From the NCBI GenBank assembly GCA_964464475.1, contig CAYXGG010000001.1, positions 23,174 to 87,173 on the forward strand: a stretch of DNA of 64,000 nt, written 5' to 3'. The notes under the pieces were generated by a model. It was not told the origin of the DNA and ran no database searches. It worked only from the letters and a program-made list of their open reading frames with translations. Positions 23,197 to 50,412 of the stretch are shown here, piece by piece. The stretch is from an uncultured Planctomycetales bacterium. GTDB taxonomy: Bacteria > Omnitrophota > Gorgyraeia > Zapsychrales > JAHFFX01. Made by a program: the position numbers and the translations under genes. Positions within the stretch are counted from its first letter, which is position 1; the number at the start of each line of letters is the position of its first letter.

Positions 23197-23214
23197 TCGA
23201 ATTAAATAGTCGGC

Positions 23215-23520: not shown

Positions 23521-23522
23521 TC

Positions 23523-23747: not shown

Positions 23748-23754
23748 CCCATAA

Positions 23755-23994: not shown

Positions 23995-24032
23995 AATATG
24001 GTCAATCATTCATCAAATCTAAGGAGACAGCG

Positions 24033-24803: not shown

Positions 24804-24818
24804 AGGCGGACAATCTAC

Positions 24819-27162
<2,344 letters not shown>

Positions 27163-29369: not shown

Positions 29370-29382
29370 CCAATTAAAGTCT

Positions 29383-30591
29383 ATGCCGCTGTTTAACTAT
29401 AAAGCTAAAAGACCGGACACTCAAACCGTGGAAGGACGAATCTCGGCGGAAAATGAAGAGATGGCTATAGAGCTATTGACTCAACAAGGATTACTGCCGA
29501 TTAAAGTTCTTCCCGTGGAAGACGGAGCTCAGGGGGTATTAGGGACTTTTGCCGATCAAGTGCATCGTAAGGACGTCTATTTGTTTTCTAAACAGTTGGT
29601 GAGTTTGCTTAAGGGCGGAGTTGCGCTTTTACAGGCTTTGGAGATTTTGGAACGGCAGACCAAATCCAGGGCGTTGAAGGGCGTGATTAGTAAAATAGTC
29701 GCGGCGGTTCGGGACGGTAATTCTTTTTCTCAGGCGATGAGTTCATTCCCCAAAGTATTTTCTCCGCTTTTTGTAGCGATGGTCAAGGTGGGTGAGGAAA
29801 GCGGAAATTTAAAAGATGTGCTAAGAAATGTGACTGAATACCAGCAACGGCAAGAAGAACTCGTGAATAAAGTTCAAGGGGCCTTGATTTACCCAACGAT
29901 CATGAGTTGTGTCGGTATGGGCACGGTGATTTTTGTATTGACCTATGTCATGCCCAAGATTGTGGGACTACTTAACGGTTTGAATACCGAGTTGCCTTGG
30001 CCGACCAAGATGCTGCTAAAGTTAAGCGGTTTGTTTGCCGGAAATAATTTGTGGATTGTGATTTGTGTTCTGATGTTAGGTGTTATTTTGACTTGGTGGA
30101 GTAATTTAGCCAAGCAGGACAAACTAAAAAGTTTTATTTCTTTGAAAATGCCGGTTGTGGGTGATTTGTTGACTCGAGTGGATATCGCGCGTTTTTGCCG
30201 CACGATGGAGATCTTGCTTAAAGGAGGGATCCCTATTTTGCGGTCGATTGCTTTGGCCACCCCGGTGGTTAACAACGCGATTCTTCGGCAAGATTTATCC
30301 CAGAGTTTGGAGGCCCTTTCCTCGGGGGACTCTTTAGCGCGCAGTTTACAAAATTCTCGCTGGTTGCCACCAATGATGCTGAGCCTTATTTCCGTGGGGG
30401 AGGAATCCGGGTCGCTGGCAGAAGCCTTGGGTGATGTCGCCGACATTTATGAGTCTGAAACGAATGAATGGCTCAAAATGATGACCACTTTACTGGAGCC
30501 ACTGATGATTCTGGTCATTGGCGGGGTGATTGGATTTTTGGTTATGGCGATGTTGTTGCCCATATTTCAAATTGATGTTTTTGCGCGTTAA
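29383..30591 (+). CDS. gspF: Type II secretion / type IV pilus inner-membrane platform protein (GspF/PilC family, 402 aa).
   Basis: It has two repeated GspF domains with three transmembrane segments. Conserved stretches include LLKGGVALLQALEIL and LLKGGIPILRSIAL. It lies immediately downstream of the secretion ATPase. Confidence 0.85.
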   Translation: MPLFNYKAKRPDTQTVEGRISAENEEMAIELLTQQGLLPIKVLPVEDGAQGVLGTFADQVHRKDVYLFSKQLVSLLKGGVALLQALEILERQTKSRALKGVISKIVAAVRDGNSFSQAMSSFPKVFSPLFVAMVKVGEESGNLKDVLRNVTEYQQRQEELVNKVQGALIYPTIMSCVGMGTVIFVLTYVMPKIVGLLNGLNTELPWPTKMLLKLSGLFAGNNLWIVICVLMLGVILTWWSNLAKQDKLKSFISLKMPVVGDLLTRVDIARFCRTMEILLKGGIPILRSIALATPVVNNAILRQDLSQSLEALSSGDSLARSLQNSRWLPPMMLSLISVGEESGSLAEALGDVADIYESETNEWLKMMTTLLEPLMILVIGGVIGFLVMAMLLPIFQIDVFAR

Positions 30592-30592
30592 G

Positions 30593-31414
30593 GTGGGTCA
30601 TTTTGGCGCCGGCGCGAGTGCAAAAGTCATTTTTCCGGTGCTGCTTATCATGGTCTGGACTGCTGTCAGTCAGGCTGACACGCTGGACTGGCAGGAGCAG
30701 CGCGGTGATCACTTTATTGTTTATTATTTAGAGGATAAAGATAGTCATCTCGCTAGTCAGACGATTATAAAGGCGGAAGAATTTTATCGGCAAATTGATG
30801 AAGATATCGGGTACTCGCGGTATTCTAATTTCTGGACTTGGGAAAATCGGGTCAAAATATTTATTTTTCCAAACAAGGATTTGTTCCGGCAGTACACCGG
30901 GCAGCCCGAGTGGTCCCACGGCATGGCCAGTAGTAATACCCGTTTGTTTGGAGCGCGGTTTATCGTGACGTATAGTGAACAGAAGAATTTCTTTGATGGT
31001 TTGCTGCCCCATGAAATGAGTCATTTGATGTTGCATGATTTTTTAGGTTCTTCGCAGGCTGCGCCACTCTGGTTCGATGAAGGAATGGCACAGTTGTTGG
31101 AAGAAGGCAAACTCGCTAAATGCGCGCCAATTGTTCGATACATGGCGCAAAAAGAAAAATTTTTTCCTTTCGAACAGTTGAATGATTTAGATATTCGCCA
31201 GGAGAGAAATAATAAATTGGCGGTTCTGTTTTATGCTCAAGGGGTTTCCGTGGTCGATTTTATAAAAAAGCAGTATGGCCGCGCGGCGTTACAGCAAATT
31301 TGCCGTGGGCTTAAAGAAGGCCGTTCTTTTGAAGAGGCGTTGCGGGTGGCTACGTCTCAGGCTGTCCCTACGATGAAAGAGCTCGAGCGTAAATGGCTCA
31401 ACGCCGTTAAGTAG
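30593..31414 (+). CDS. Secreted zinc metallopeptidase of the Peptidase_MA_2-like family (HExxH plus a downstream EG). A GTG start at 30593 is proposed.
   Basis: HEMSHLMLHDF...PLWFDEGMAQLLEEG matches the HExxH...EG.A gluzincin signature. There is an N-terminal signal-like segment AKVIFPVLLIMVWTAVSQA. The ORF-track start at 30530 overlaps gspF, and a GTG at 30593, right after the gspF stop, gives the signal peptide. Confidence 0.55.
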   Translation: MGHFGAGASAKVIFPVLLIMVWTAVSQADTLDWQEQRGDHFIVYYLEDKDSHLASQTIIKAEEFYRQIDEDIGYSRYSNFWTWENRVKIFIFPNKDLFRQYTGQPEWSHGMASSNTRLFGARFIVTYSEQKNFFDGLLPHEMSHLMLHDFLGSSQAAPLWFDEGMAQLLEEGKLAKCAPIVRYMAQKEKFFPFEQLNDLDIRQERNNKLAVLFYAQGVSVVDFIKKQYGRAALQQICRGLKEGRSFEEALRVATSQAVPTMKELERKWLNAVK

Positions 31415-31427
31415 TCAACTAAAAGGA

Positions 31428-31853
31428 GTGATTATGGTGGTCAATAAACACATCAAAGGTTTTACTTTAATTGAAATCCTGCTGGTCGTGATTATCATCG
31501 GCGCTTTGGCGGCGATGGTCATTCCCCGTTTTGCGGGGCGTTCCGAACAGGCCAAAAAAGCGGTGGCTCAGTCGGACATTGAAGCTAACTTAGCTACGGC
31601 GCTTAAGCTTTATGAATTAGACAACGGTAATTTTCCTACCACGGCCCAGGGATTGGAGGCGTTATTAACCAAACCGACCACGCCCCCGGTTCCCAAAAAT
31701 TGGAATACACCGTATATTGAGAAGGTCGCACTTGACCCTTGGGGGAGGCCTTATGTGTATGCATCTCCGGGCGATCATCGCACCGATTATGATTTGTATT
31801 CCAAAGGCAGGGATGAATCGAAAGAGGACGATGATATCGTTAATTGGAAATAG
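31428..31853 (+). CDS. gspG: Major pseudopilin (GspG family, 141 aa).
   Basis: It has a type IV prepilin N-terminus (KGFTLIEILLVVIIIGALAAMVIPRF) and a GspG core (QAKKAVAQSDIEANLATALKLYELDNGNFPTTAQGLEALLTKP ... LDPWGRPYVYASPG...DYDLYSKGRD). Confidence 0.9.
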   Translation: MIMVVNKHIKGFTLIEILLVVIIIGALAAMVIPRFAGRSEQAKKAVAQSDIEANLATALKLYELDNGNFPTTAQGLEALLTKPTTPPVPKNWNTPYIEKVALDPWGRPYVYASPGDHRTDYDLYSKGRDESKEDDDIVNWK

Positions 31854-31854
31854 A

Positions 31855-32277
31855 TTGTTTGTCCCTGGATTAGCCCTACCATCGGGAAGGCGGCGTCAGC
31901 CTAAAGGGATGACATTTTTGGAAGTGCTTTTGACAGCGTCGATCCTCTCTTTGGGGTTTGTTGGGGTTTATCGAATTTATTTTTCAATTTTTGACGCGTA
32001 TCATCATTTATCCTGTCGCTTACAGGCTTTTAATGTCATGAATGATCACTTAAGTCAGCTGCAGCGGTATCTTCAGGATAGTGGTCAGCTGCCTTTGGGA
32101 GGAGAGTCCCAGAGTCGGACTGTGACCATTGATCGGCAGGAAGTTGTTTTTTCTACACAGTCTCACTGGGAAAACGTTGATGATCTACCTAAAATATTCC
32201 GAGTGACGATTGAATTAAATTGGCGAGAACGTTTGGGCCCCAAACAGTTAACCCGAACCCTATTTCTTTCCGCCTAA
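31855..32277 (+). CDS. Minor pseudopilin / prepilin-like protein (GspH/I-like). Its start is uncertain, either TTG at 31855 or ATG at 31909.
   Basis: It contains the prepilin-type N-terminal helix G-MTFLEVLLTASILSLGFVGVY preceded by a basic leader (GRRRQPKG). The upstream 40 codons of the ORF-track call overlap gspG and were discounted. Confidence 0.55.
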   Translation: MFVPGLALPSGRRRQPKGMTFLEVLLTASILSLGFVGVYRIYFSIFDAYHHLSCRLQAFNVMNDHLSQLQRYLQDSGQLPLGGESQSRTVTIDRQEVVFSTQSHWENVDDLPKIFRVTIELNWRERLGPKQLTRTLFLSA

Positions 32278-32289
32278 CCATAACTATCC

Positions 32290-32919
32290 GTGCGCACTAT
32301 TTCCCATCCGTTATTTCGAAAGAAGAGTCATACGAGCGGTTTTACGTTGCTAGAGACTCTGCTGGTCGCGTCGTTAGTCTCGCTTGTGGGTGCCGCATTA
32401 TTTCAGGCGGTAACCAATGGATTAAAGCTTTGGCAACGCAGCCGAATCGTGGTTGTTGAGGAAGATGCGTTGATTTTTTTTGATAAATTGGCAAGAGATT
32501 TGGAAAACAGTGTGCGTTTTTCATTGCTTTCTTTTGATGGAAAGTCGCGCCGCTTGATTATTCCCACCCGGGTGCAGATTGAGCCTGAGCCCCGTTCGTC
32601 TTTTCGGCAGGATCAACTGACGACACAGCTGGGGCTCGTGGAGTATTCCTGGGACGCGGCGAGCCATGCGGTTATCCGACGACAATCTTCCTATGGAGAG
32701 GCTTTGGCGCGCAGCTTCGGTCCGCCTCAAACATTAGTGACTTCCGTCGACGCGATGCGTTTTCGCTATTTTGCGGATGGGGGAGATGGTAGGGCCTCCC
32801 CGCGCGAAGCCGTGAGCTATCGGCCCTTGGCGGTAGAGGTTCACCTAACGCTTAAAGATGAACGTGGCGAACGTAATCTTAGTCGATTCATTAACTTGCC
32901 TTTTGGGGGACAACCATGA
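32290..32919 (+). CDS. Minor pseudopilin (GspJ/PilW-like, 209 aa).
   Basis: The leader ends ...KKSHTSG and is followed by FTLLETLLVASLVSLVGAALF, a class III signal with Glu at +5. Its size and position between pseudopilin genes support the call. Confidence 0.6.
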   Translation: MRTISHPLFRKKSHTSGFTLLETLLVASLVSLVGAALFQAVTNGLKLWQRSRIVVVEEDALIFFDKLARDLENSVRFSLLSFDGKSRRLIIPTRVQIEPEPRSSFRQDQLTTQLGLVEYSWDAASHAVIRRQSSYGEALARSFGPPQTLVTSVDAMRFRYFADGGDGRASPREAVSYRPLAVEVHLTLKDERGERNLSRFINLPFGGQP

Positions 32920-33959
32920 AACGCTGTCTACGTTCCCGGCAAGGAAGTTTGCTGGTATTGGCTTTATGGTCTTTGGGGTTGTTGGCGGTGTTGGTGATCG
33001 CGATGGCATCCAATTTACGCCAGAAAATGAGTTTGTTGGGGCGATTGGAAAAACGAGAGACTACTCTGGCGGTCGCTCAGGCGGGGGTTCAGTACGCCAT
33101 GGCTTTTTTAAATAATGATCTGGAGAAGAATGGCTTTGATCTAACGCACAAAACAAAAATGAACCGGATGAATAATCCCCATCGCTTTAACGAGATCATA
33201 CTTCCGGATGGAGTTGCGCAAGTGAGCTATCAACTTTCCGTCGGCGGTGTTGAATCGGAAAAAATGTATGGTATCATGGATGAAGAAAGTAAAATAAATC
33301 TTAATCACGTCGACGAGAAGGTCATCCGATCCTTGCTGGGAGAAATTTTGAAATTAAGCGGTGATGAATTGGATCAATTATCAGTGAGTATTGCGGATTG
33401 GCGCAAAATTGGTTCCAGCGAACTGTCCGGATTTTATAGTGATGATTATTATCAAAATTTACGTTCGCCCTACCCGGTCAAGGACGCGGATTATGAACTA
33501 TTAGATGAATTGTTGCTGGTTCGGGGCATGTCTCAGGAGATTTATGACGTGGTGCGTTCCTATGTCACCCTCCTGGGAGATGGTCGGGTGAATGTTAACA
33601 CGGCTTCTGGACCAGTTTTGCGAGCTTTGGGGTTGGATTCATTGGTCGTTGATAAAATTTTAATAGCCCGCTCGGGGGCAGACGGCCAAGAAGCCACGGC
33701 CGATGATTTATTTTTTATGCGTCCTTACGATGTGGCGACCGACGTTCATTCGATAGTCCCTCTGAAACCTGAAGAAATTGCTCAGATTGAAGAAGTGAAT
33801 GCCCGCGGATTGCTGGGGATCCAATCCAGTTTTTATCGGATAGAAAGTTTCGGTCGTCTCTCGGGAGCCTCATCGGGGGAAAAAATCATGGCTATTTTTG
33901 ATGCCACACAGCGTAAATGCATCTACTGGCATCAGGAATCAACGGCGAGTTTAAATTAA
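32916..33959 (+). CDS. gspK: GspK-like minor pseudopilin (347 aa).
   Basis: The N-terminus RQGSLLVLALWSLGLLAVLVIAM is GspK-type (GSALvlvLw..llL..l). It has a large periplasmic domain. There is a 4-nt overlap with the upstream gene. Confidence 0.6.
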   Translation: MKRCLRSRQGSLLVLALWSLGLLAVLVIAMASNLRQKMSLLGRLEKRETTLAVAQAGVQYAMAFLNNDLEKNGFDLTHKTKMNRMNNPHRFNEIILPDGVAQVSYQLSVGGVESEKMYGIMDEESKINLNHVDEKVIRSLLGEILKLSGDELDQLSVSIADWRKIGSSELSGFYSDDYYQNLRSPYPVKDADYELLDELLLVRGMSQEIYDVVRSYVTLLGDGRVNVNTASGPVLRALGLDSLVVDKILIARSGADGQEATADDLFFMRPYDVATDVHSIVPLKPEEIAQIEEVNARGLLGIQSSFYRIESFGRLSGASSGEKIMAIFDATQRKCIYWHQESTASLN

Positions 33960-33961
33960 CC

Positions 33962-35476
33962 ATGTTCTCAGCGGAACCAGATAATATCAGTGTCAGTTTA
34001 GTGAATGATGTCCTGCGGGTCGCGGGAGTTCGTGCGTCCGGTTCTTCACTGGAAGTGGTTATTTGCGCAAAACGTGACGTTAAAGGGCAGACCGAGGATG
34101 AAATTGCTAAAACGCTTCGATCCGTGTTAACGGGAGTCAATTTTAAAAAGATTCCAGCTTATTGCCTGATTCCACCGTCAGCCGTCACGACCAAAAATAT
34201 CGAGATTCCTTCCAAAGATCCTACGGAAATCAAATCAATTATTAATCTTCAGGCCGGGAGGCATACCCCGTACTCTCGAGAAGAAATTCAAATGGGTTAT
34301 ATCAACATCGGAGTCTATCAAGTTAACTACACCAAGGTTTTGCTAGTCATCGCCAACCGCCAAGTTATTAAGACGCCGCTGCGTATCATGGAGGCGGCCG
34401 GATTAAGGGTGGAAAAGGTTCTTTTTTCTCCAGAAGGGATCGGGCATTTCTATGGAAAAGCTTTAGGCTTTTCCCGGCACGATTCCCCCATTGGTATTAT
34501 TGATGTCGCCCAGGACGGGACCGATTTTATGATTGTGCTTAAAGGTATTGTTATTGCTTGCCGGCATATCCCTTGGGGCGCTTCGCAATTGGCTCAAGGA
34601 CAAAGTCATTTGAAAAAGCTAGTTGAAGAAATCCGTTTGTCGGTGGAAGCGTACATTAATGAAGATATTGATAAGCCTCCGCTACAGTATTTATTGACAT
34701 CGAAAGATCCCTTAGTGGCCGCTTTGGTCGAGCCTTTGTCGGTCCAATTATCAGTTCCGGTAAAGATTGAAGCGTATCGGGAAAAAATGCGTTTGACCGG
34801 TCCCGTTCAAAAAATATTGGCACCAATGGCGTCGGATTCCTTCTTGGATATTTTTGCTGGGGTTTACCAGCCTGCCGAAGCGCAGATCGATTTGCTACCT
34901 GAAGAAACCAAATTGCAACGCAGCATTCAATCCCAGGGCCACGAAGTCATCAAACTCGGCGCGTATGTCATTACCATTCTTATTTTCTTGACCTGCTTGT
35001 TCTTCGGTGAAATCTATTTTAAGAATACATTCTTAACTAAATTAAATGCTACTTATAGCAAACACCATGATCAGGTGGCGCAGCTTGAGAAGATTGCCGC
35101 GCGTACACGCATCGTCAAAGATTTTTTTAACAGTCGTATGACTACCTTAGAGGCGACTAAAGAGCTCTATAGGCTTTTACCGCAAGAAATATATCTGGAA
35201 AGCTTTTTATTGGATGATAAGGGAGCTTTAAGCATTAAAGGTATTTCCGAATCCATGTCCAAGGTTTTTTCTTTGGTTACGGCATTGGAAGAATCGAGTC
35301 TTTTTAAGAATGTTAAGACTCAGTCGACCAGCGCTAAGAAAGAGCGGGGCAAAGACGTTGCGGCTTTTGAGATTATTTTTAAGCTTGAGACTGCCAAGGA
35401 TGATCCGTCTCAGGTTAAAGGTGATACTAAAAAAGAAAATGCGAGTACTGAGGCCTCACGAGAGAATAAATCATGA
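33962..35476 (+). CDS. PilM-PilN fusion / GspL-like assembly protein: a cytoplasmic actin-like domain, one transmembrane helix and a periplasmic domain (about 505 aa).
   Basis: A PilM-like segment ...LLVIANRQVIKTPLRIMEAAGLRVEKVLFSPEGIGHFY is present. The internal transmembrane helix is LGAYVITILIFLTCLFFGEIYF, followed by a periplasmic region. An ATG 2 nt after the gspK stop was chosen over the overlapping upstream start. Confidence 0.55.
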   Translation: MFSAEPDNISVSLVNDVLRVAGVRASGSSLEVVICAKRDVKGQTEDEIAKTLRSVLTGVNFKKIPAYCLIPPSAVTTKNIEIPSKDPTEIKSIINLQAGRHTPYSREEIQMGYINIGVYQVNYTKVLLVIANRQVIKTPLRIMEAAGLRVEKVLFSPEGIGHFYGKALGFSRHDSPIGIIDVAQDGTDFMIVLKGIVIACRHIPWGASQLAQGQSHLKKLVEEIRLSVEAYINEDIDKPPLQYLLTSKDPLVAALVEPLSVQLSVPVKIEAYREKMRLTGPVQKILAPMASDSFLDIFAGVYQPAEAQIDLLPEETKLQRSIQSQGHEVIKLGAYVITILIFLTCLFFGEIYFKNTFLTKLNATYSKHHDQVAQLEKIAARTRIVKDFFNSRMTTLEATKELYRLLPQEIYLESFLLDDKGALSIKGISESMSKVFSLVTALEESSLFKNVKTQSTSAKKERGKDVAAFEIIFKLETAKDDPSQVKGDTKKENASTEASRENKS

Positions 35477-36192
35477 TCCAACAGTGGTTTGTTAAATTAT
35501 CCGCGGGAGAGCGCAAACTTTTTTATGGGGCGGCGGCTTTTTTATTGTTGGCGGTCATTGACCGTTCTTTCTGGGGGCCGGTCCGGGCGCAATTAAAACA
35601 AGTTGAAGAACGCATTCGGCACGAAGAAGGTAATATCCGGCAGAATTTGCGATTGCTAGCGTATAAAAAACGCATACTTGAAGAACAGGACGTATTCTCA
35701 TCTTATTTTATCCAGAAAGTAAGTTCGGAAGAAGAAATTATTGCCGAGTTTCTCAAGAAAATTGAAATCATGGCTACTGAAGCCAATATTAATTTAATCA
35801 AAGTGACGCCTTCAGAAGGTAAGCAGCGCAAGGGTTTTAAAGAGTATCTTGCGAGTTTGGAATGCGCCGGAAATATGGAACAGTTAATTAAATTTTTGCA
35901 TTTAATTGATGGATCTAAAGATTTATTGCGGACTTCCAAATTAGCGCTGCTACCTAAGAAAGGGTCCGAGACCAACGAAGTCAACGCGACGATGGCCATC
36001 ACCAAGGTGTTGATTGATCCTTTAGAAGGTATGCCGATGACTTCGAAAAAGAATAAGACGATTCGACTGGAAGATCTCGGTATCCAGGGCACGATGAATG
36101 TCCCCGTTAAGATGGAGTCCAACGTTCCCCCGGAGCCAAATGCGAAACCCAAAAGAGGAAATGTCGATGCGGTTAAGTTTTCGCAAGATTAA
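35473..36192 (+). CDS. PilO/GspM-like bitopic inner-membrane assembly protein (239 aa).
   Basis: It has a short cytoplasmic N-terminus, one transmembrane helix (LFYGAAAFLLLAVI) and a coiled-coil plus periplasmic domain. Its position after the GspL-like gene with a 4-nt overlap supports the call. Confidence 0.45.
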   Translation: MIQQWFVKLSAGERKLFYGAAAFLLLAVIDRSFWGPVRAQLKQVEERIRHEEGNIRQNLRLLAYKKRILEEQDVFSSYFIQKVSSEEEIIAEFLKKIEIMATEANINLIKVTPSEGKQRKGFKEYLASLECAGNMEQLIKFLHLIDGSKDLLRTSKLALLPKKGSETNEVNATMAITKVLIDPLEGMPMTSKKNKTIRLEDLGIQGTMNVPVKMESNVPPEPNAKPKRGNVDAVKFSQD

Positions 36193-37021
36193 AGTTTCCA
36201 TTATCTTTCTCATCGGGCTGCTGGCGTGGGCTGCGGGTGTTGCGGTCCCCGTTGCCGTTGCGCAACAAGAAATCCGGGACATCTATCAGCAGGCTGAGAC
36301 CGCGTTTAACGCTGGTGAGTATCAGAAAGCGATCAACCTTTTTGAAAAGGTTTTGGACCTGAATCCCAAATTTGCTCCCGCTTACAACGCTATTGGGCTT
36401 TGTCATAAGCAGATGAACACGCCATTGCCGGAAGTAATTTGGTATTTTAAGACAGCCCTAGAATATGATCCCAATTTTGTTGATGCCAGTAGTAGCCTTG
36501 CCAAGGCTTATTATGGGTTAGGCCAATTCGATAATGCCGAAAAAGTTTGTTTGGATGGACTGAAAATTAATCCGGACCACCTGGATTCAAAGCTGTCGTT
36601 GGGTTGGATTTACTTGCTGGGGAAGGGGAAACCTAAAGACGCGATTCCTTATTTCAAGGATGTCTTTGATCAGGCTCAGCTACCTAATGCGGCGCTCGGG
36701 CTGGGCATGGCGTATTTTATGAGTGATGATCGCGTGGGGGCCATGGATATGATTACGGCGCTGAAAGAATTAAAACAGATTGATATGGCGACACAGCTCG
36801 AGAATATGGTGCGTGGCAATGAGTTTAATAAGGAAGAAGAAGGTCGGCAGTTAGTTCATCCTGTTGAGCGCCCACCGCCTCGCGTTGCCCCGGGGGGAAC
36901 GACTATCACGGGTGCTAGCGGCGTGATGCGCGTGCGTTTACGCGGTAAACTCATCAATATGGGAAACGCGGAGATTCAAGGTTCCGCCAGTTCGGGGAAT
37001 CCTTCCGCAAGTTCGTATTAG
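36161..37021 (+). CDS. Secreted tetratricopeptide-repeat (TPR) protein. It may be a pilotin- or PilF-like protein; that is speculative.
   Basis: The signal peptide is MSMRLSFRKIKVSIIFLIGLLAWAAGVAVPVAVAQQ. TPR-like helices are present (YQKAINLFEKVLDLNPKFAPAYNAIGLCH; ALEYDPNFVDASSSLAKAYYGLGQFDNAEKV). It is the last gene of the + strand run. Confidence 0.55.
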   Translation: MSMRLSFRKIKVSIIFLIGLLAWAAGVAVPVAVAQQEIRDIYQQAETAFNAGEYQKAINLFEKVLDLNPKFAPAYNAIGLCHKQMNTPLPEVIWYFKTALEYDPNFVDASSSLAKAYYGLGQFDNAEKVCLDGLKINPDHLDSKLSLGWIYLLGKGKPKDAIPYFKDVFDQAQLPNAALGLGMAYFMSDDRVGAMDMITALKELKQIDMATQLENMVRGNEFNKEEEGRQLVHPVERPPPRVAPGGTTITGASGVMRVRLRGKLINMGNAEIQGSASSGNPSASSY

Positions 37022-39714
37022 TTTTCCCTGCTCGTTAGGGGTCCATCCAGTTCCTGCCGAAAATTATTCCAGTTGATTTCATAAACCAAAATCTGAGTTC
37101 TTCCCGTCAGGTCGCTGTCGGCAAAGAAGGGTTTAAAGAATTTAAGCCCTTGACCTTTGAAATAATATAATCGAAATAGCACTGAGCGCGCTAATCGAGG
37201 ATCCGCGAGGATGACGCTGAGGCGACCGTTATCATCTAATAACAGCACGTTATAGCCTAGAGTGTTGCCGGGAATTTTGGCTTCTACGTATTGTCCCTGC
37301 TCATCGAGGTATTGAATGGCCGCCGGAATTCCCTGGCCAAATTTAGGGGAGCGGATTTCGCAGCGTTTGGTCGATAAGTTTATGGCGACTCCCTGATCGA
37401 AGAGTACCGTATCGCCGGAGAGACCAACTGCATGAAGTGGTTCACTGTAGTGCAACGGCCCACCCGCTAGATTCCAAAGGAAATCAATATATTCTTTACT
37501 TTTGCGCGATGGAAGCTTAGCGCGTGTTGCTGGATGGGCGTTGATTTCTTCCACTTTCTTAAAATTCCAGCGATCCAGGAAACTTAATATCAGGCTTTTC
37601 TCGACGATTTCATTGTAAATGAATAGATATGCCGGTGGGGGTGCGGCGTGCGTGAGTTTAAGTAACGCGCGGGATTGTTCTGGAGGGAATGAGGCGTTGT
37701 TTAAAAACAGTTGGGCTTGGAATGGGTTGAGGCCGCCAATGACTTTGAGGAGTTCGACCGCTACGGATGTTTTGGCGCCGAGGCTGACCAAATAATCGCA
37801 GGCGGCGTTGGCGCTGTTGTTAAGCATGCGCAATATGCCTAAGGCTTCACGTTCATCGGTGGCTAGAAAAACATTAGCCATCCAGTAGGCTTGAGGAAAA
37901 TTAATGGTAGCTCCGTCAAAGGTGACACGACGCTTGGCCATCGCCTTGATAAAGTGCCCTGGCGGCCACCAGGAATTGACGATGGCGTCCTGAGGCGTCG
38001 CTTGATTTATTTTCTGGAACGCGTTGTCCCAGGTACGATTGTAGATGCGGGTAATTTGAGATGGCGTTGTCACCTGGGCGTGGATGACCGCCGGAATCAT
38101 CAGTAGCAACGGGATACTTCCGAGCGAAAGTTTGAACCAAGAGAAAGAGTTCTGCTTGTTCTGGGGGAATGGGAATTTGCTTTCAAGCCAATGCGTGAGT
38201 TCTTCCAGTCCAAAACAAATCAGCAGAACGAGTGGCGTTAAGAATAATAACGCGAAACGCTGAGCTCCTAAGGTCAGTAAGAAAGCGCTAGTGGCTAAGG
38301 CGAAGAATAGAATAATGCCAAAATAATTAGATTTCTCCCGGGATGAAAAGAATTTAATCGCGACGAGACCAGCGCCGAAGGCTCCTAATATTAATATCCA
38401 GCCACCGCCGCTGAGTTCAATCAAATCCGCTAAGGTCATCCGCTTTAATTCTCCGACGGTCACATAAATATCCGGCCAGATGGATAATTGCGGATTCATA
38501 AAATCTTTGAGCGCTTTGAGTCCTTCCGAAAATAGAGCAAAGAATTGAGTCGGTCCGAAAGTCACCGCAATACCTAAGAATGTCCCCAGCGCGAATGCCG
38601 GCCATATGAGCCAGAATCCCTTGCGGCGCTGGGTTACGGGTACGAGCCAGAGATTGAGTCCAGAAAGGATGATCAAGGTCAGGGTAATGATCGTAAAGTG
38701 AAACATCCAGCCGTGCCAGAATAGCGCGTAAAGATTCATAATAAGTCCTGCGATAAAACCGCTAAACAATCGTCCTCGGGGATTACTACCATCACGAAAT
38801 GCCAGTAACAGCGGCAGGCAAACCAGAAGCGGAAAAAGTAAACTGTAGGGGTCGTTGTCGTACCAGCCAAAAAGACTGCGTTTGATGAGTAGCGGGCAGC
38901 AAGCTAGTAGCATCGCTCCAGCCAGAGTCGTCATCGGGCGGAAATTAAGTAGCCACCCCGTCCAGACGAAGGCCAATAAGAAGAAGGCGGTGATGATTAG
39001 AGGCGTAAAGCTGACCGCGTACATGAGCTCGGTCTCTGGGCGAAAGAATTTGAGTACGTGATAAATAGTCAATCCCACATATGGATGAAGCGTTAAGGGC
39101 TCCCAGTGTCCCTCCGGGGCGAGCATCAGGCGATTTAAATATTTGCTGCCGGATTGGGAGTCACTTAAACGTCCGGTCGAAAGTAGGTTGTCGGTCAGGT
39201 TGTAATAATTAAAAGGGTCCGCTTCCAGAAGATAAGGATAACGCTGTGGGCCTGGCTGGGCCTTCTCTATTTGGACAGCCAGACGTTCAATGCGCTGCAA
39301 CAATGATTTGCTTTCAGTGTGCATGCGACGATCAAATTCTTTCTTGATGGTTTGGTCGCGAATTGCTTCGGGTAACTGTGGGGAATGCGTGATAATTTGT
39401 TCAGCGACACTGGCGCGCAATTGATTGATGGCCAATAGGCTGGCTTTCTCGTAAGACTCAGTGGAATAAAAATGACGCAGCGGGTAACTACGGAAATAAA
39501 GGGCTACCAGCACGGCAAGTATCCAAACCAGCGCATAGGCACCGAACGTGAGCGCGAATGAGGGGCGTAGCGTTGTCGGAGCTGGAGGTTGGGCTAAGGG
39601 AATATTTTTCATAACGGAAAAGATTGAGGCCATTGTAATGGGCGTTGGCAAGGGATGCAAGCCCGGAGCGGAAATTCTTAATCTGGAACGAGCATATTTT
39701 GAAAAAGTCGGCAA
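37018..39714 (-). CDS. Large multi-pass membrane protein with a C-terminal soluble domain (898 aa). It is a putative GT-C fold STT3/AglB-family oligosaccharyltransferase-like enzyme.
   Basis: It has roughly 13 predicted transmembrane helices in the N-terminal 520 aa. The first external loop carries LLEADPFNYYNLT, which resembles the STT3/AglB EL1 motif DP(Y/F)FNYR. A later loop carries SWWPPGHF, a variant of the WWDYG motif. A C-terminal periplasmic domain of about 370 aa is present. An alternative start lies at M28 (39633). Confidence 0.45.
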   Translation of the reverse strand: MPTFSKYARSRLRISAPGLHPLPTPITMASIFSVMKNIPLAQPPAPTTLRPSFALTFGAYALVWILAVLVALYFRSYPLRHFYSTESYEKASLLAINQLRASVAEQIITHSPQLPEAIRDQTIKKEFDRRMHTESKSLLQRIERLAVQIEKAQPGPQRYPYLLEADPFNYYNLTDNLLSTGRLSDSQSGSKYLNRLMLAPEGHWEPLTLHPYVGLTIYHVLKFFRPETELMYAVSFTPLIITAFFLLAFVWTGWLLNFRPMTTLAGAMLLACCPLLIKRSLFGWYDNDPYSLLFPLLVCLPLLLAFRDGSNPRGRLFSGFIAGLIMNLYALFWHGWMFHFTIITLTLIILSGLNLWLVPVTQRRKGFWLIWPAFALGTFLGIAVTFGPTQFFALFSEGLKALKDFMNPQLSIWPDIYVTVGELKRMTLADLIELSGGGWILILGAFGAGLVAIKFFSSREKSNYFGIILFFALATSAFLLTLGAQRFALLFLTPLVLLICFGLEELTHWLESKFPFPQNKQNSFSWFKLSLGSIPLLLMIPAVIHAQVTTPSQITRIYNRTWDNAFQKINQATPQDAIVNSWWPPGHFIKAMAKRRVTFDGATINFPQAYWMANVFLATDEREALGILRMLNNSANAACDYLVSLGAKTSVAVELLKVIGGLNPFQAQLFLNNASFPPEQSRALLKLTHAAPPPAYLFIYNEIVEKSLILSFLDRWNFKKVEEINAHPATRAKLPSRKSKEYIDFLWNLAGGPLHYSEPLHAVGLSGDTVLFDQGVAINLSTKRCEIRSPKFGQGIPAAIQYLDEQGQYVEAKIPGNTLGYNVLLLDDNGRLSVILADPRLARSVLFRLYYFKGQGLKFFKPFFADSDLTGRTQILVYEINWNNFRQELDGPLTSREN

Positions 39715-39799: not shown

Positions 39800-39875
39800 G
39801 GGCCATTAGCTCATCTGGTAGAGCAACTGACTCTTAATCAGTGGGTGGCAAGTTCAAGTCTTGCATGGCCCACCA
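39800..39875 (+). tRNA. tRNA-Lys (anticodon CUU).
   Basis: A cloverleaf was read by eye. The acceptor stem is GGGCCAT/ATGGCCC, the D arm is GCTC-ATCTGGTA-GAGC, the anticodon stem is ACTGA/TCAGT with loop CT-CTT-AA, and the T arm is GGCAAGTTCAAGTCTTGC. A 3' CCA is encoded. Confidence 0.85.
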
Positions 39876-43395: not shown

Positions 43396-44721
43396 ATGCG
43401 CCGTCTTTTTCAGATAAGGAACGGGTGGCTTCAAAAAAAATCGGGTATCGGTATTCTGTATTTATTGGTGTTTTCTTTTTGTCAGCCTGCTTATTCCCAG
43501 CCTGGCATCTTCGATGGTGATCCGCAGTTGGAATTACTTTATGAAAAATTGCTGAGTAATAATTTAGAAATCAAAGCCGCCCAGGAAAAGTGGGAAGCGA
43601 TGAAAAAACGCGTTCCTCAGGCTGCGGCTTTGCCAGACCCCACTTTTACGTATTCGGTCATGGGGCCGGACATCATGACGATGAGAGGACCACAGGAAGA
43701 GATTTATGAGGGGGAACAAATGGTTCCGTTCCCGGGGGAATTGGCGGAGCGCAAAGCCATTGCGAAGGAAGAAGCTGCCGCCGCGTTGGCCAAGGCCAAG
43801 GCAAGTCAACAAAATGCGATCTTAGCCTTAGTGGAAACTTATTACGATTATTATTATTTGAAAAATTCGTTAACGGCGACTAAACAATTAAAAGAACTTC
43901 TGCAAAAAAATGAGTCGGTCGCCCAAGCGCGCTATGCCTCTCAGGGGAGCGCTCAGCGCGAAGTGACCCACGCCCAGACGGAAACAGCGTCTATTTTAGA
44001 GCGGATTATTGTTCTGGAGCAGCAGCTGGCGACAACAGAGCTTTTCTTGCAGAAGCTCCTTAATGAAGCGGGGCCCTTGCCACTGCAGCCTATTCTTGAT
44101 CCGGTTATCCCCAACCTTTCGTCTTCCCTTGAAGAGTTAACCCAATTGGCTTTCATTAACCGTCCTGAGATCGTAGAAGCGCAAGCCATGGAAAATAAAG
44201 AAAAGCACATGAAAAAGATGGCTGTTTACGAGAATGCCCCGGATATTAGTGTAGGTTTTCAATATTACCGGATTGGTTCGGGTGAGACCTCTGATCCAGA
44301 AGATGGACAAGACGCGTGGATGATCCCCATCAAAGTCACCGTACCGCTTTGGCAAAATCGAATTATCGCCGGAATTAGTGAAGGAACGCGCAACCTTAAC
44401 GCGGCTAAAGCCAGTTTGCAAAATGAAAAAAATTTGGGTCAATATGAAGTCGCGAAGGCTTATTTTCAATTTCAATCCCGCAAACAGGTCGTTGACCTTT
44501 ATCAAAATGCCTATTTGCCTCAAGCGGAAACGGCTTATAAATCCGATCAGGCTGGTTATGAAGCGAACCGTTCGGAGCTAACCGCCTTATTAGAAAGTGA
44601 GCGCGCTTATTTGAATACAAAGCTAGGGTATTATGAAGCGTTGGCGGAGGCCATGAAAAGTTTTGCTGCGTTAGAACGTTCTGTGGGTGTTTCCTTGATG
44701 ACGAAGGAGGTCTTAAAATGA
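43396..44721 (+). CDS. cusC: Outer-membrane efflux protein (TolC/OMF family, CusC-like, 441 aa).
   Basis: It has a signal peptide and duplicated OEP-type coiled-coil and beta-barrel repeats. It is the first gene of a tripartite RND operon. Confidence 0.75.
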   Translation: MRRLFQIRNGWLQKKSGIGILYLLVFSFCQPAYSQPGIFDGDPQLELLYEKLLSNNLEIKAAQEKWEAMKKRVPQAAALPDPTFTYSVMGPDIMTMRGPQEEIYEGEQMVPFPGELAERKAIAKEEAAAALAKAKASQQNAILALVETYYDYYYLKNSLTATKQLKELLQKNESVAQARYASQGSAQREVTHAQTETASILERIIVLEQQLATTELFLQKLLNEAGPLPLQPILDPVIPNLSSSLEELTQLAFINRPEIVEAQAMENKEKHMKKMAVYENAPDISVGFQYYRIGSGETSDPEDGQDAWMIPIKVTVPLWQNRIIAGISEGTRNLNAAKASLQNEKNLGQYEVAKAYFQFQSRKQVVDLYQNAYLPQAETAYKSDQAGYEANRSELTALLESERAYLNTKLGYYEALAEAMKSFAALERSVGVSLMTKEVLK

Positions 44722-46124
44722 TTTTAAAATCAAAGCCGGTTGTCATGGGAGCAGTTTGTCTAATTTTGTTATTAATTGCTTTGCGATTTTTTGAAAGGAA
44801 TCGTCTGTTTCTTCAATCGTCCGCAAGCTCTGGCCAATCTGAAAACAATTATTATTGCCCGATGCACTCGCAGATTCAAGCGGACAAGCCGGGCGTTTGC
44901 CCTATCTGTAATATGAATTTGGTTAAAAAAGAAGCCAAGGCCAAAAAGTCAGAATCGGTAAAAACACAGACCAGCCCACTATATTATTGCCCCATGCATC
45001 CTCAGATTCAATCGGACAAACCTGGGGTCTGTCCCATTTGTAACATGAATCTGGTCAAAAAAGAAAGCTCTCCCGAGGCGCAGAAAACTAACGAAAAAAA
45101 AGCTAAAGATATTTGTTACTTTCATGATTGTCATAAAAAATCCGGCGGCAAGCCGTGTCCGATGATGGTCGTGACGAAACCCGGAGAAAAAGTGCATTGT
45201 CCGATTTGCGGGACCTTTATTGCTGGAGAGGAAGGATTGATCCCTATGGAGGAGGCCAAGCCGGAAGGGTATGCCTCCATTATTCTTTCCGACCAGAAAA
45301 GGCAATTGATCGGACTAAAAACGGTAGCCGTCAAGAGCGAAAAGATTTCGAAAAGAGTTCGTGCCGCAGGAACAATCGCCCATGATCCGGAACTTTATCA
45401 AGCGCAAAGCGAATATGTCCAGGCGATTCAGGCCTTAGAAAGAGCCAAGACAAGCTCCTTACCGGAAATCGTTAATCAGGCTGAGCGACTGGTTGACTCC
45501 GCGCGTATTCGCTTAAGGCATTTGGGGCTCAACGATGACCTGATAGAAGAGTTTGCCAAAGGCAAACAGGCCGAGCACAATTTGCTGTATGCGCACCCGG
45601 GTAATCCTATGTGGATGTACGCTCAGGTATTTGAATATGAAATTCCCCTTATTAAAACTGGCCAGAAAGTCACTGCAGAGGTGGTTTCGTTGCCTAATGA
45701 AGTTTTTGTAGGAACAGTAAGGTCGATTGATGCCATGGTTGATCCCACAACACGGACGACCCGTATCCGCGCTCTTTTGGATGATCCCGATGGGCATTTA
45801 AAACCTGATATGTATGTCAATGCCTTCATTGATATTGATTTAGAGGAAACTTTGGTCGTTCCTCAGGAGGCCGTTTTTAACACCGGGGTTAAGAAAATCG
45901 TTTTTGTTGAAGGCGAAGAGGGCGTTCTTGATCCCCGGGAGGTATCATTAGGGCAAACGTCCGGAAATCAAGTGCAAATTCTTCATGGTGTTAAAGAGGG
46001 GGATAAAGTCGTCAGTAACGGGAATTTCTTAGTAGATTCTGAAAGTCGATTGCAGGCCGCCTTGGAGGGGATGGGAACCCCAGCCCCTGAGTCTTCGGGA
46101 ACTGTTGAACAACACCAACACTAA
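44718..46124 (+). CDS. cusB: RND efflux membrane-fusion protein (CusB-like) with N-terminal tandem heavy-metal-binding CxxH...CxxC repeats (468 aa).
   Basis: There are two near-identical repeats, YYCPMH(S/P)QIQ(A/S)DKPGVCPICNMNLVKKE, and a third degenerate copy (CPMMVVTKPGEKVHCPICG). They are followed by HlyD-like beta-barrel and lipoyl segments. The 4-nt overlaps with flanking genes support an operon. Confidence 0.8.
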   Translation: MILKSKPVVMGAVCLILLLIALRFFERNRLFLQSSASSGQSENNYYCPMHSQIQADKPGVCPICNMNLVKKEAKAKKSESVKTQTSPLYYCPMHPQIQSDKPGVCPICNMNLVKKESSPEAQKTNEKKAKDICYFHDCHKKSGGKPCPMMVVTKPGEKVHCPICGTFIAGEEGLIPMEEAKPEGYASIILSDQKRQLIGLKTVAVKSEKISKRVRAAGTIAHDPELYQAQSEYVQAIQALERAKTSSLPEIVNQAERLVDSARIRLRHLGLNDDLIEEFAKGKQAEHNLLYAHPGNPMWMYAQVFEYEIPLIKTGQKVTAEVVSLPNEVFVGTVRSIDAMVDPTTRTTRIRALLDDPDGHLKPDMYVNAFIDIDLEETLVVPQEAVFNTGVKKIVFVEGEEGVLDPREVSLGQTSGNQVQILHGVKEGDKVVSNGNFLVDSESRLQAALEGMGTPAPESSGTVEQHQH

Positions 46125-46136
46125 ATTCTTCGGTAT

Positions 46137-49100: not shown

Positions 49101-49487
49101 GCGTTGATGGGGCTTGACGCGGAAACCGGTGTTTTTATGTTATTGTTTCTGGATTTAGCGTATAAAGACGCGGTATTAAGCGGAAAAATGAAAACGCGAG
49201 ATGATTTGGAGGAAGCGATTGTCCATGGAGCGGTCAAAAGGGTCCGTCCTAAAATGATGACGGTGGTGGCGGCTTTTATGGGATTATTGCCGATCATGTG
49301 GTCCATGGGGACTGGCGCCGACATGATGAAGCGGATCGCGGCCCCTATGGTCGGAGGTTTGGCGACATCCTTTTTATTGGAATTGATAGTTTACCCGGTT
49401 GTTTATTTTATTTGGAAGTGGCATTTTGAAATGAAGCGCGGTCAGGCCGATTGGATTAAGCGGGGAATGGTCCCCTCAACTATTTAA
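46137..49487 (+). CDS. cusA: Heavy-metal efflux RND transporter (CusA/CzcA family, 1116 aa).
   Basis: It has 12 transmembrane helices and two large periplasmic loops, with HME-RND signatures such as AGIAISIGVLVDGAIVEVEN. Its length is typical of CusA. Confidence 0.85.
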   Translation: MLLHSSEGQRKDGLIEKVIEFSAHHKFLVLILVAMAMIWSVWCIKNIPLDAIPDLSDSQVIIYSRWDRSPDIIEDQVTYPIISALLGVPQIKAIRGFSDFGFSYVYVIFKDGTDLYWARSRVLEYLNKISSKLPEGVKTEMGPDATGVGWVLQYVLVNKTGEQDLQQLRSFQDWNLRYHLQSVPGVAEVASIGGFQKQYQITVDPNRLVAYNVPLNAVIDAVRMGNMEVGGRLLEFSGAEYMVRGRGYVKSVADIENMVVSVDAKGTPILIKNIASVAIGPEIRRGLADLDGEGDAVGGTVIMRFGENALSVIKAVKQKLKEIEPSLPPGTTIEIVYDRSDLINRAIATLKHQLIEEMLIVSLVILVFLWHFPSAVIPIVTIPISVLLSFIPMYGLKLTSNIMSLAGIAISIGVLVDGAIVEVENAYKRLEQWNANGRKGDFHVIRLQALKEVGPAVFFSLLVIAVSFIPIFTLVDQEGRLFKPLAWGKNLAMFIAAVLAITLDPALRMLFTRMDPIQVSWKILPAFLRQGMSTWATRLAVGHYYPEEQHPISRRLFGVYEPICRWVLRHRKTTLAITLALTLTTIPVFFQLGSEFMPPLWEGDILYMPTTLPGISVTQAQQLMQTQDKILKGFPEVKRVFGKAGRIESSTDPAPFSMMETMVQLKPPSEWRSIDRWYSSFPEFLKKPLRVIWPDRISPETLINEMDQALKIPGTTNAWTMPIKNRIDMLSTGVRTPIGIKVLGSDLQQIERIGAQVESVIKNLPGTRSVFAERAAGGYFLDFDLKREALARYGLSVEDAQTVVMTAIGGENIATTIEGRERYPINIRYPRAFREDIEQLKRVLIATPSGQQIPMVQIADIVLRSGPAMIRNENGLLAGYVYVDTHGIDVGTYVEKAKKKVSESIMLPEGYSLLWSGQYENMIRVRERLKVVIPLTLFIICFLLYLNTKSVVKTGIVLLAVPFSLIGAVWLLWLLDYNLSIAVWVGMIALMGLDAETGVFMLLFLDLAYKDAVLSGKMKTRDDLEEAIVHGAVKRVRPKMMTVVAAFMGLLPIMWSMGTGADMMKRIAAPMVGGLATSFLLELIVYPVVYFIWKWHFEMKRGQADWIKRGMVPSTI

Positions 49488-49499
49488 GCAGGAGGACTC

Positions 49500-49691
49500 A
49501 TGCGAAAGAATAACATGGCTCAGGAAGAGCGTTTTACGCGAACGACGTTTGGTTTGCTGATGATGGGGGCGGCTTTTGTGTCTTGGGGAAAGTGGGTGGT
49601 ATTTATTCTAGGAGTCTTATTTTTGATTTCCGCGTGGCAGGGGTATTGTGTAACGTGTGAAATCTATCGTAAATTTAATAATTCGCGCTGA
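49500..49691 (+). CDS. DUF2892 (YgaP-like) small membrane protein (63 aa).
   Basis: It forms a two-transmembrane hairpin, and the GxxxxxxGYCVTCEIYRKF tail is typical of DUF2892. Confidence 0.45.
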   Translation: MRKNNMAQEERFTRTTFGLLMMGAAFVSWGKWVVFILGVLFLISAWQGYCVTCEIYRKFNNSR

Positions 49692-49746
49692 TAATTTTTC
49701 ATGAGGAAAGATTGAAGGCGTGTTAGGTCAGAAAGGAGCTGTTGCA

Positions 49747-50301: not shown

Positions 50302-50412
50302 TAATTACGTTAGCTACGGGGCGGATTAAGAATAGGTTCCCTTGCGTTCTTAATCCGCCCGGAGTTCCTTAAGGGCAGTGAGACCTTATTGAATTTAAGG
50401 AGTCATTAGATA

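Follow-up and report, generated by a model that had tools for sequence, protein, structure and literature searches.

An STT3-family glycan transferase with an altered acceptor motif, encoded beside a pilus-like gene cluster in Omnitrophota

Is a divergent membrane protein encoded next to a pilus-like operon in an uncultured bacterium an oligosaccharyltransferase (OST), and if so, by what rule would it select its acceptors? The question is raised by a stretch of 64,000 nucleotides (the window) from contig CAYXGG010000001.1, deposited under the name of an uncultured Planctomycetales bacterium and placed by GTDB in Omnitrophota. From the sequence of the window, an initial annotation had pointed to a multi-pass membrane protein of about 900 residues as a candidate STT3/AglB-like OST, with glycosyltransferases of fold type C (GT-C) from other families (ArnT/PMT-like, GT83/GT39) as the alternative, and had regarded it as one of the rare bacterial cases. 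Instead of a one-off, the protein turns out to be a member of an Omnitrophota family found throughout the phylum. In this family, the catalytic residues of STT3 enzymes are conserved, and the aspartate that reads the acceptor sequence in known OSTs is lost.

The first part of the question concerns the family. STT3 (PF02516) is the only Pfam family that matches the protein above threshold (E = 4e-17; 63.3 bits vs. a gathering score of 24.5), and the match extends over residues 159-546, which correspond to positions 26-404 of a profile of 405. The same family is present in all 79 homologues found by a word-indexed search. When the sequence (with phmmer) and a profile of the family were compared with the sequences in the PDB, the matches were solely fragments of STT3A/B, AglB and PglB, and the NCBIfam model archaeo_STT3 gave 43 bits against a cutoff of 450. 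An AlphaFold2 model computed from an alignment of 76 sequences (predicted local distance difference test, pLDDT, 89.9; predicted template modelling score, pTM, 0.88) places about 13 transmembrane helices in residues 53-553, with a long first external loop and a further loop joining helices 9 and 10, followed by a soluble mixed alpha/beta domain. Thus, the proposed multi-pass architecture holds, as does the soluble C-terminal domain, although in the model the latter measures about 340 residues (555-898) instead of the 370 estimated before. In a Foldseek search of the PDB with this model, ranks 1-21 are occupied exclusively by PglB, STT3 and AglB. The best matches are to Campylobacter lari PglB (6gxc, 5ogl and 3rce; E = 9e-20 to 1.5e-18; TM score 0.69-0.70 on the target), followed by yeast and human STT3 and Archaeoglobus fulgidus AglB (E = 1e-14 to 1e-11). 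The C-terminal domain itself matches that of C. jejuni PglB (3aag; Foldseek E = 1e-8; profile E = 0.005), and the Pfam models for the AglB and STT3/PglB core domains recognize it weakly (E = 0.17-0.26). In effect, it is practically certain that this is an STT3-family GT-C enzyme.

Are the residues that perform catalysis in this family retained? Conservation was followed in two alignments, A1, with 76 sequences at 31-49% identity, and A2, with 129 cluster representatives down to 25% identity, which add up to 205 sequences. Residues were mapped onto solved OSTs through HMMER alignments, and their roles are those described in PMC7226087. The first external loop (EL1) carries the D-P-F-N-Y-Y motif noticed previously (coordinates of this and the other motifs are given in Table 1). 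Its D166, conserved in 76/76 sequences of A1 and 128/129 of A2, aligns with the aspartate of known OSTs that binds both the acceptor amide and the metal (PMC7226087). The stretch from R279 to D288 aligns with RSVAGSYDNE in STT3A and RSILGFNDHH in AglB; R279 and D288 are invariant and D286 is present in 204/205 sequences. In EL5, the fifth of the external loops, P414 and E422 are invariant and W413 occurs in 203/205 sequences, within a motif of the form [S/T/G/A]-V-G-E. The model places E422 in the loop between the ninth and tenth helices (residues 388-406 and 438-457), and by motif and position it is presumed to correspond to PglB E319, AglB E360 and STT3A E351, a type of glutamate that contacts the acceptor amide and the metal (PMC7226087). 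Finally, R486, whose counterparts PglB R375 and AglB R426 bind the phosphate of the lipid carrier (PMC7226087), is invariant in the family alignments. Thus, the STT3 catalytic motifs are all there.

The exception is the motif with which OSTs recognize the sequon. In PglB and STT3, the Asp of WWD and the indoles of both Trp form hydrogen bonds with the hydroxyl of the Ser or Thr at the +2 position (PMC7226087), and the WWDXG signature has been called "essential for function" (PMC12229607). At this place the protein has S-W-W-P-P-G-H-F, as first pointed out by eye and now borne out by the HMMER alignments to STT3A and AglB. The third position is occupied by Pro (63), Ser (9), Cys (2), Thr (1) or Ala (1) in A1, and by Pro (88), Ser (23), Cys (6), Ala (5), Thr (4), Gly (1), Asn (1) or Asp (1) in A2; overall, one of the 205 sequences has Asp there. 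The two Trp are conserved, as are the Gly and the His or Tyr next to it, and the fourth position is nearly always Pro; the residue after the Gly is Y468 in PglB, Y521 in the yeast protein and His in AglB. The sole member with Asp (P0213, YWDPGY) is a divergent protein labelled Omnitrophica, and a search with it produced two matches, of which the named one is also Omnitrophica. A little downstream, D600 and G601 are invariant or nearly so, in a stretch that aligns with vDNNT of STT3A and, judging from the sequence, may correspond to the motif known as DGGK or DGGR (names as in PMC12229607) of bacterial PglB. In the sequence alignments no residue could be paired with K586 or I572 of the DK and MxxI motifs, which contact the +2 residue.

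In summary, the protein has the STT3 profile and fold, the EL1 Asp, the Arg with D-x-D/E/H, the EL5 Glu and the phosphate-binding Arg, and lacks WWDxG. Consequently, it is not filed here as a canonical N-x-S/T OST: of the proposal of an N-linked OST, the STT3 family stands, while the use of the N-x-S/T sequon is not established, as the Asp is replaced across the clade. Because the residue that reads the sequon has been lost in this way, the acceptor motif is probably not N-x-S/T. This pattern, in which the chemistry is fully conserved and the sequon reader has undergone a fixed change, speaks against decay and for an active enzyme that follows another acceptor rule, and we consider it very probable that the protein is catalytically active.

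How widespread is this change? Among the 79 homologues of the word-indexed search, the named ones are "STT3 domain-containing protein" or "hypothetical" entries from metagenome-assembled genomes of Candidatus Omnitrophota or Omnitrophica. When 1.84 billion representatives were searched exhaustively, there were 3,797 matches at E ≤ 1e-3 and 1,226 clusters (50% identity) at E ≤ 1e-30; the best 150 matches all had E < 1e-178 and were mostly full-length. Among GTDB species representatives, the gene is found in at least 205 genomes. The labels of the 80 loci retrieved from these are nearly all Omnitrophota, the others being the generic "uncultured Planctomycetales", one "Lysobacterales" and one plain "bacterium", which we suspect to be cases of mislabelling or misbinning. 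Thus, as far as labels show, the clade appears to be confined to Omnitrophota. In one locus (L006; 186-5391, plus strand), there are two tandem paralogues of 832 and 885 residues, both with WWPPG and the full set of catalytic motifs.

The second part of the question, what the enzyme might act on, was approached through its gene neighbourhood. Proteins of the window were compared by tblastn with the 80 species-representative loci, and the denominators below are the loci with enough flanking sequence for each neighbour. In the window, the STT3-like open reading frame (ORF) converges on the pilus locus, as initially described: its end overlaps by 4 nucleotides (37018-37021) that of the TPR gene that closes the pilus-like operon. 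The TPR gene is directly downstream and convergent in 57/69 species (median gap, 163 base pairs), and it is accompanied on this side by PilM/N (46/57), T2SSK (45/56) and GspG (40/52). On the opposite flank transketolase and transaldolase recur, the former in 15/48 species. In effect, linkage amounts to 83% on the pilus side vs. 31% on the other flank. In locus L005, whose protein has 31% identity, the STT3-like gene is embedded on the same strand within the pilus cluster, between the TPR gene and T2SSK, which indicates that the linkage survives rearrangement.

A second partner is found upstream. In 60/70 species, the gene directly upstream on the same strand encodes a secreted serine protease of the Trypsin_2 family (approximately 226-260 residues), which has a signal peptide and what looks like a His/Asp/Ser triad; the gap is 8-30 base pairs in L003 and L004, the loci where both coordinates were read. 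This gene is kept even in most loci without the pilus cluster. Genes for glycan synthesis are also found near some relatives. For instance, L005 has a GT2 glycosyltransferase and a DUF2304 protein on one side and a second GT2 on the other. Downstream of its tandem copies, L006 has T2SSK, an S41 protease, a GT1 glycosyltransferase, a methyltransferase and a DegT aminotransferase. Upstream in L004 and its relatives, there are genes for the undecaprenyl-diphosphatase BacA, PIG-L and GNAT proteins. Between the TPR and STT3-like genes of a sub-clade that includes L062 and L073, there are genes for a UDP-GlcNAc 2-epimerase, a GT2, a 561-residue multi-pass membrane protein and a 113-residue protein.

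Taken together, these observations suggest, with a probability that we put at roughly 55%, a periplasm-facing, metal-dependent transferase that uses a glycan linked to a polyprenol (di)phosphate, modifies exported proteins at a non-classical motif and is functionally coupled to the pilus-like apparatus and, in most cases, to the trypsin-like protease. The enzyme would consist of a single subunit with its active site and C-terminal domain facing the periplasm. This orientation is predicted: an N-terminus with six Lys or Arg and no Asp or Glu is consistent with a cytoplasmic N-terminus and a periplasmic C-terminal domain. By homology, the donor would be a glycan on a polyprenol (di)phosphate carrier, with its phosphate held by a divalent metal (bound by D166, R279, D286, D288 and E422) and by R486. 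The glycan would then be passed to a nucleophile clamped by D166 and E422, which is the carboxamide of Asn in all known relatives. In the acceptor pocket, re-tooled from WWDYG to WW(P/S/C/A/T)PG(H/Y), both Trp remain and the Asp that reads the +2 position is gone. As for the substrates, the linkage of the genes points to exported parts or cargo of the adjoining surface machine, which combines pilus-like and F1-like ATPase components, and in most species the co-transcribed protease probably acts on the same substrates in the periplasm. A precedent exists in archaea, whose type IV pilins and archaellins are N-glycosylated by AglB (PMC4390842, PMC4371748).

A bolder form of this proposal can be put forward tentatively, and we hold it to be more doubtful than not. 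According to it, an ancient, phylum-wide branch of STT3 in Omnitrophota has a different acceptor code (WWxPG, with no reading of a +2 Ser or Thr) and, with a dedicated protease, glycosylates and processes parts or cargo of the pilus-like/F1-like ATPase apparatus, which is thought to serve in attachment or predation.

Several observations weigh against the model of a transferase with a non-classical acceptor motif that is tied to the pilus-like machine. In most species the STT3-like gene converges with the pilus operon and is not co-transcribed with it, and in 12/69 species it lies among housekeeping genes, sometimes near a GT2 or methyltransferase gene. The window locus is one of about ten without the trypsin-like partner, with tRNA-Lys in its place, and no glycosyltransferase, flippase or initiating transferase was found among the ORFs of the window. 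Regarding the protein itself, a phmmer search with residues 392-510 gave no residue-level match between EL5 and a solved OST. Moreover, the loss of the WWD Asp could mean a different class of acceptor and not a changed sequon. The counts of sequons do not help either. The pseudopilins and T2SSK of the window have 0-1 N-x-S/T sites, and when orthologues were pooled over 34-61 species, there was no consistent enrichment of N-x-S/T in the periplasm-exposed proteins of the cluster: z scores were -1.2 for GspG, -1.4 for T2SSK, -2.8 for TPR, -1.8 for the Peptidase_MA protein, +2.4 for PilM/N and +2.1 for the T2SSM-like protein, and the largest excess was that of T2SSE, a cytoplasmic control (z = +4.9). 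Thus, the idea of canonical N-x-S/T targets near the STT3-like gene is unsupported.

A giant repeat protein, also encoded in the window, was considered as a substrate and set aside. It contains about 490 tandem repeats of 13 residues (G-[VI]-N-W-x-D-[IL]-x-x-[ML]-[ST]-x-A), is rich in Asn (12.6%) and Trp (7.5%) with almost no Pro, Cys, His or Lys, and has 174 N-(W/F/Y)-S/T sites and an excess of sequons (z = 3.9). Nevertheless, in the orthologous repeat protein of locus L087 the +2 position is mostly Leu, Gly, Val or Ala, and no N-terminal signal peptide is found in the giant protein, which makes it an unlikely substrate; the invariant Asn-Trp pair is more simply seen as structural. Its non-repeat C-terminal 262 residues have two homologues among 5.8 billion proteins. 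A single-sequence AlphaFold prediction for 390 residues of the repeats gave all short beta strands, with a pLDDT of 47.9 that is too low for a fold search. In L087 (3-3355, plus strand), the reading frame of the repeats breaks after about 750 residues while the DNA repeat continues, with ORFs of 753+, 363 and 441 residues being called; possible causes are a frameshift, misassembly of the repeat and a gene that is truly divided into several ORFs.

The explanation that best withstands the evidence after the one proposed above is a transferase with the STT3 fold that has switched its class of acceptor, either to an O-linkage on Ser or Thr or to a non-protein acceptor (a polysaccharide, a lipid or a polymer linked to peptidoglycan) destined for the pilus-like machine, and so is not an N-OST. 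We regard it as somewhat unlikely. The loss of the sequon-reading Asp, the weak scores of the C-terminal domain against the Pfam core models and the polysaccharide-type genes near relatives, such as the UDP-GlcNAc 2-epimerase, GT2, a polysaccharide deacetylase and the second multi-pass membrane protein, all speak for such a switch. In addition, other GT-C enzymes, namely ArnT, PMT and the Emb/Aft families, use non-amide acceptors. The family, however, keeps a highly conserved EL5 loop (W-P-D-L-Y-I-S-V-G-E-L), a loop that pins the peptide in OSTs, and to our knowledge no member of the STT3 family has a non-Asn acceptor; a literature search found none. The invariance of the D166/E422 pair points in the same direction, as in PglB, AglB and STT3 it clamps the carboxamide of Asn (PMC7226087).

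A conventional, general N-OST that reads N-x-S/T like PglB is improbable. In this case, WWPPG would simply be tolerated, perhaps with another residue supplying the hydrogen-bond acceptor, and adjacency to the pilus genes would be inherited gene order. It would agree with the full catalytic set, the retention of both Trp and PglB as the best structural match; besides, gene order in Omnitrophota is partly conserved in general, as the recurrence of transketolase and transaldolase on the other side shows. Against this, the absence of Asp in 204/205 sequences that span 25-49% identity points to a fixed, selected change, and affects the very residue that binds the +2 hydroxyl. The difference in linkage between the two flanks, its survival in L005 and the lack of an N-x-S/T excess in the periplasmic proteins of the cluster are also at odds with it.

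That the protein is an inactive STT3 relic, kept as a scaffold in the envelope, is very improbable: a motif considered essential has indeed been lost, but the metal-binding and catalytic residues, like the Arg that binds the phosphate, show little or no variation across hundreds of divergent sequences, and glycan-synthesis genes and BacA adjoin the genes of relatives. The last possibility is a GT-C enzyme outside the OSTs (ArnT/PMT-like, GT83/GT39), with an Asp-rich first loop that has only a superficial likeness to that of STT3. It is effectively refuted, since DPY19, AftA, ALG3, AftD, ArnT and Pmt4 share the fold but appear in the Foldseek list far below the OSTs, at E-values at least 12 orders of magnitude weaker than those of the full-length OST matches (E = 5e-7 to 5e-2, with ArnT at 4e-4 to 6e-4 and Pmt4 at 5e-2; TM 0.2-0.5, vs. 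E of about 1e-19 and TM 0.70 for PglB), no PMT, PMT_2 or ArnT family matches in Pfam even at E ≤ 10, and the STT3-specific SVxE of EL5, the WW..G and the PglB-like C-terminal domain are present.

Table 1. Positions of the STT3-like gene, its motifs and neighbouring features (window coordinates, except where a relative's locus is named).
Feature	Position	Strand	Remarks
STT3-family (GT-C, GT66-like) glycan transferase ORF	37018-39714	-	898 residues counted from the first in-frame TTG
EL1 motif E-A-D166-P-F-N-Y-Y (residues 164-171)	39202-39225	-	D166 aligned to STT3A D49 and AglB D47; counterpart of PglB D56
R279-S-L-F-G-W-Y-D286-N-D288	38851-38880	-	Metal site; counterpart of PglB R147/D154/D156 and AglB R154/D161/H163
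EL5 motif W-P-D-I-Y-V-T-V-G-E422 (SVxE/TIxE type)	38449-38478	-	E422 presumed counterpart of PglB E319
G-A-Q-R486-F	38254-38268	-	R486 aligned to AglB GQNRFA (R426) and the STT3A Arg; counterpart of PglB R375
C-terminal domain, predicted periplasmic (residues 555-898)	37021-38052	-	Helical core and beta-rich lobe in the model
S-W-W-P-P-G-H-F (residues 581-588), in place of WWDYG(Y/H)	37951-37974	-	Aligned to sWWDYGYQI of STT3A and WWDYGHWI of AglB
F-D600-G-A-T	37906-37920	-	Aligned with vDNNT of STT3A
Trypsin_2 protease gene	9312-9992 (L004); 8792-9472 (L073)		Upstream of the STT3-like gene; also in most of L007-L086
TPR protein, secreted or membrane-anchored	36098-37021	+	Closes the pilus-like operon; directly adjoins the STT3-like gene, to which it is convergent
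Type II secretion system (T2SS)/type IV pilus-like operon	27165-36192	+	T2SSE (MshEN and PilZ), T2SSF, Peptidase_MA_2, GspG-like pseudopilin, two minor pilins, T2SSK, PilM/N fusion, weakly T2SSM-like protein
GspG-like pseudopilin	31428-31853	+	In the pilus-like operon
Non-respiratory F1-like ATPase genes: alpha, b/delta fusion, gamma, beta	21622-27162	+	Directly upstream of the pilus-like operon
448-residue protein	20160-21506	+	Signal peptide, long exposed domain, C-terminal membrane anchor; no Pfam match
Giant repeat ORF, 6,711 residues	6-20141	+
tRNA-Lys(CTT)	39800-39875	+	Between the STT3-like gene and transketolase

The STT3-like gene is the sole long minus-strand gene of the window, and its start is probably an internal ATG at 39633 (M28) or 39612 (M35), which would give a protein of 871 or 864 residues. 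This start is preferred because homologues align only from about residue 50-60 and residues 1-48 are poorly modelled (pLDDT < 50). PF27869.1 is listed in the database's precomputed annotation of this protein (P0001) and in none of its 78 homologues, and is absent from our own Pfam scan; it possibly concerns the N-terminal extension.

The pilus-like operon is preceded by genes of a non-respiratory F1-like ATPase, whose small subunits are presumably encoded in the gap at 23196-24033, and this arrangement is also seen in L087. The 448-residue protein between the giant gene and the ATPase genes is conserved there as well (452 residues in L087). These associations are in line with the non-respiratory "symbiotic" type 2/3 F-ATPase that adjoins type IVa pilus clusters in Omnitrophota (Seymour et al. 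2023, PMC10066038) and with T2SS-like loci near giant genes (West-Roberts et al.; 2026 preprint). Within the operon, the T2SSE/PilB-type ATPase (27165-29369, plus strand) has an N-terminal MshEN and a C-terminal PilZ domain, which suggests control by cyclic di-GMP; its orthologues in L001 and L087 have the PilZ domain, and those in L004 and L005 are without it. A gene for a secreted metalloprotease of the Peptidase_MA_2 family (30530-31414, plus strand) stands between T2SSF and the major pseudopilin and is kept there in most species. The 239-residue T2SSM-like protein has an orthologue of 744 residues in L003 (15238-17472, minus strand), with a low-complexity insert of about 450 residues in which Gly, Ser, Glu, Asp and Gln abound. 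Among the window ORFs scanned, neither a prepilin peptidase (PilD/GspO) nor a secretin (GspD/PilQ) was recognized. On the other side of the STT3-like gene, the tRNA-Lys(CTT), located where relatives have the protease gene, may mark a point of rearrangement; it is followed by a split transketolase and then transaldolase. Further on, a metal-handling block (43396-52010, plus strand) encodes an outer-membrane factor, a CusB-like adaptor with two heavy-metal-binding domains, an AcrB-type pump, a YHS/TRASH protein and an ArsP-type permease fused to YHS.

How does this family relate to what has been described? In the literature, bacterial STT3-type OSTs are seen as limited to a handful of lineages (Campylobacterota and some Desulfobacterota), with "a few bacterial homologues" mentioned (PMC4973528), and WWDxG is taken to be a signature that is both universal and essential (PMC12229607, PMC7226087). 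No paper was found that joins Omnitrophota or Omnitrophica with STT3 or oligosaccharyltransferase, and a text search of Omnitrophota genome papers (Seymour et al., PMC10066038; West-Roberts et al.; 2026 preprint) returned no mention of either term. The label "STT3 domain-containing" is already used for these proteins in databases, but our searches turned up no account of the clade, of its altered motif or of its association with the pilus and protease genes. The clade comprises more than 1,200 sequence clusters, apparently from one poorly known, largely uncultured phylum of ultra-small, possibly predatory bacteria, and has kept the chemistry while dropping the sequon-reading Asp. If active, these enzymes would widen the acceptor rules of OSTs, which would be of use in glyco-engineering, where relaxed or new sequons are sought, and would inform on the evolution of sequon recognition. 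The pilus/ATPase/giant-protein gene neighbourhood of Omnitrophota would, in addition, gain a glycosylation step as well as a protease. Should the different acceptor code and the protease partner prove true, bacteria would have a third type of OST system, one whose target motif is not N-x-S/T.

Among known systems, PglB of C. lari and C. jejuni (GT66) is the closest in structure. It is likewise a single polypeptide with about 13 transmembrane helices and a C-terminal periplasmic domain; its D56, R147, D154, D156, E319 and R375 have counterparts in the STT3-like protein (presumed for E319), its DGGK resembles in sequence the D-G-x-x stretch, and the beta-rich lobe of 3aag matches that of the Omnitrophota protein. 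In contrast, sequence identity is only 11-12%, WWDYG is replaced by WWPPG (with neither Asp nor Tyr), and EL5 has S/T-V-G-E instead of T-I-x-E. The Omnitrophota protein has about 90 extra residues (three helices, 85-152) between the first transmembrane helix and the catalytic Asp, and is about 150-190 residues longer than the PglB chains matched (683-707 residues). Moreover, it is linked to the pilus-like operon and the trypsin-like protease and not to a pgl-type glycan locus.

Archaeal AglB (AglB-L of A. fulgidus and AglB of Methanococcus) is similar in size (875 residues in AfAglB-L). Its D47, R154, D161 and R426 align to D166, R279, D286 and R486, and it shares the His that follows the Gly of the motif, as in WWDYGH. 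AglB differs in that it retains WWDYG and the DK motif, and we know of no AglB gene paired with a trypsin-like protease. The glycosylation of type IV pilins and archaellins by AglB is a functional parallel to the pilus linkage (PMC4390842, PMC4371748).

The PglB homologues of Desulfovibrio (DgPglB and DmPglB) likewise come from bacteria and have diverged strongly from Campylobacter PglB. Their EL5 has eukaryote-like SVIE or SIIE motifs, their secondary motifs are variants (WWDWG, DGGR and NL), and their sequon rules are relaxed (PMC12229607), which indicates that drift in OST motifs accompanies changes in acceptor specificity. Nevertheless, these enzymes keep the Asp of WWD and still need N-x-S/T, and they are experimentally proven OSTs, while the Omnitrophota family is known from sequence.

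Finally, in Pseudomonas and Neisseria, the O-oligosaccharyltransferases with a Wzy_C domain (TfpO/PilO and PglL) and the GT-C arabinosyltransferase TfpW face the periplasm, depend on lipid carriers and are encoded beside type IV pilus genes. They are not homologues of STT3, and no Wzy_C match to the STT3-like protein was found in Pfam at E ≤ 10. They form O-linkages, and their genes stand beside that of the pilin itself and not at the far end of an assembly operon. By analogy, TfpO/PilO, PglL and TfpW are plausible functional counterparts of the Omnitrophota enzyme.

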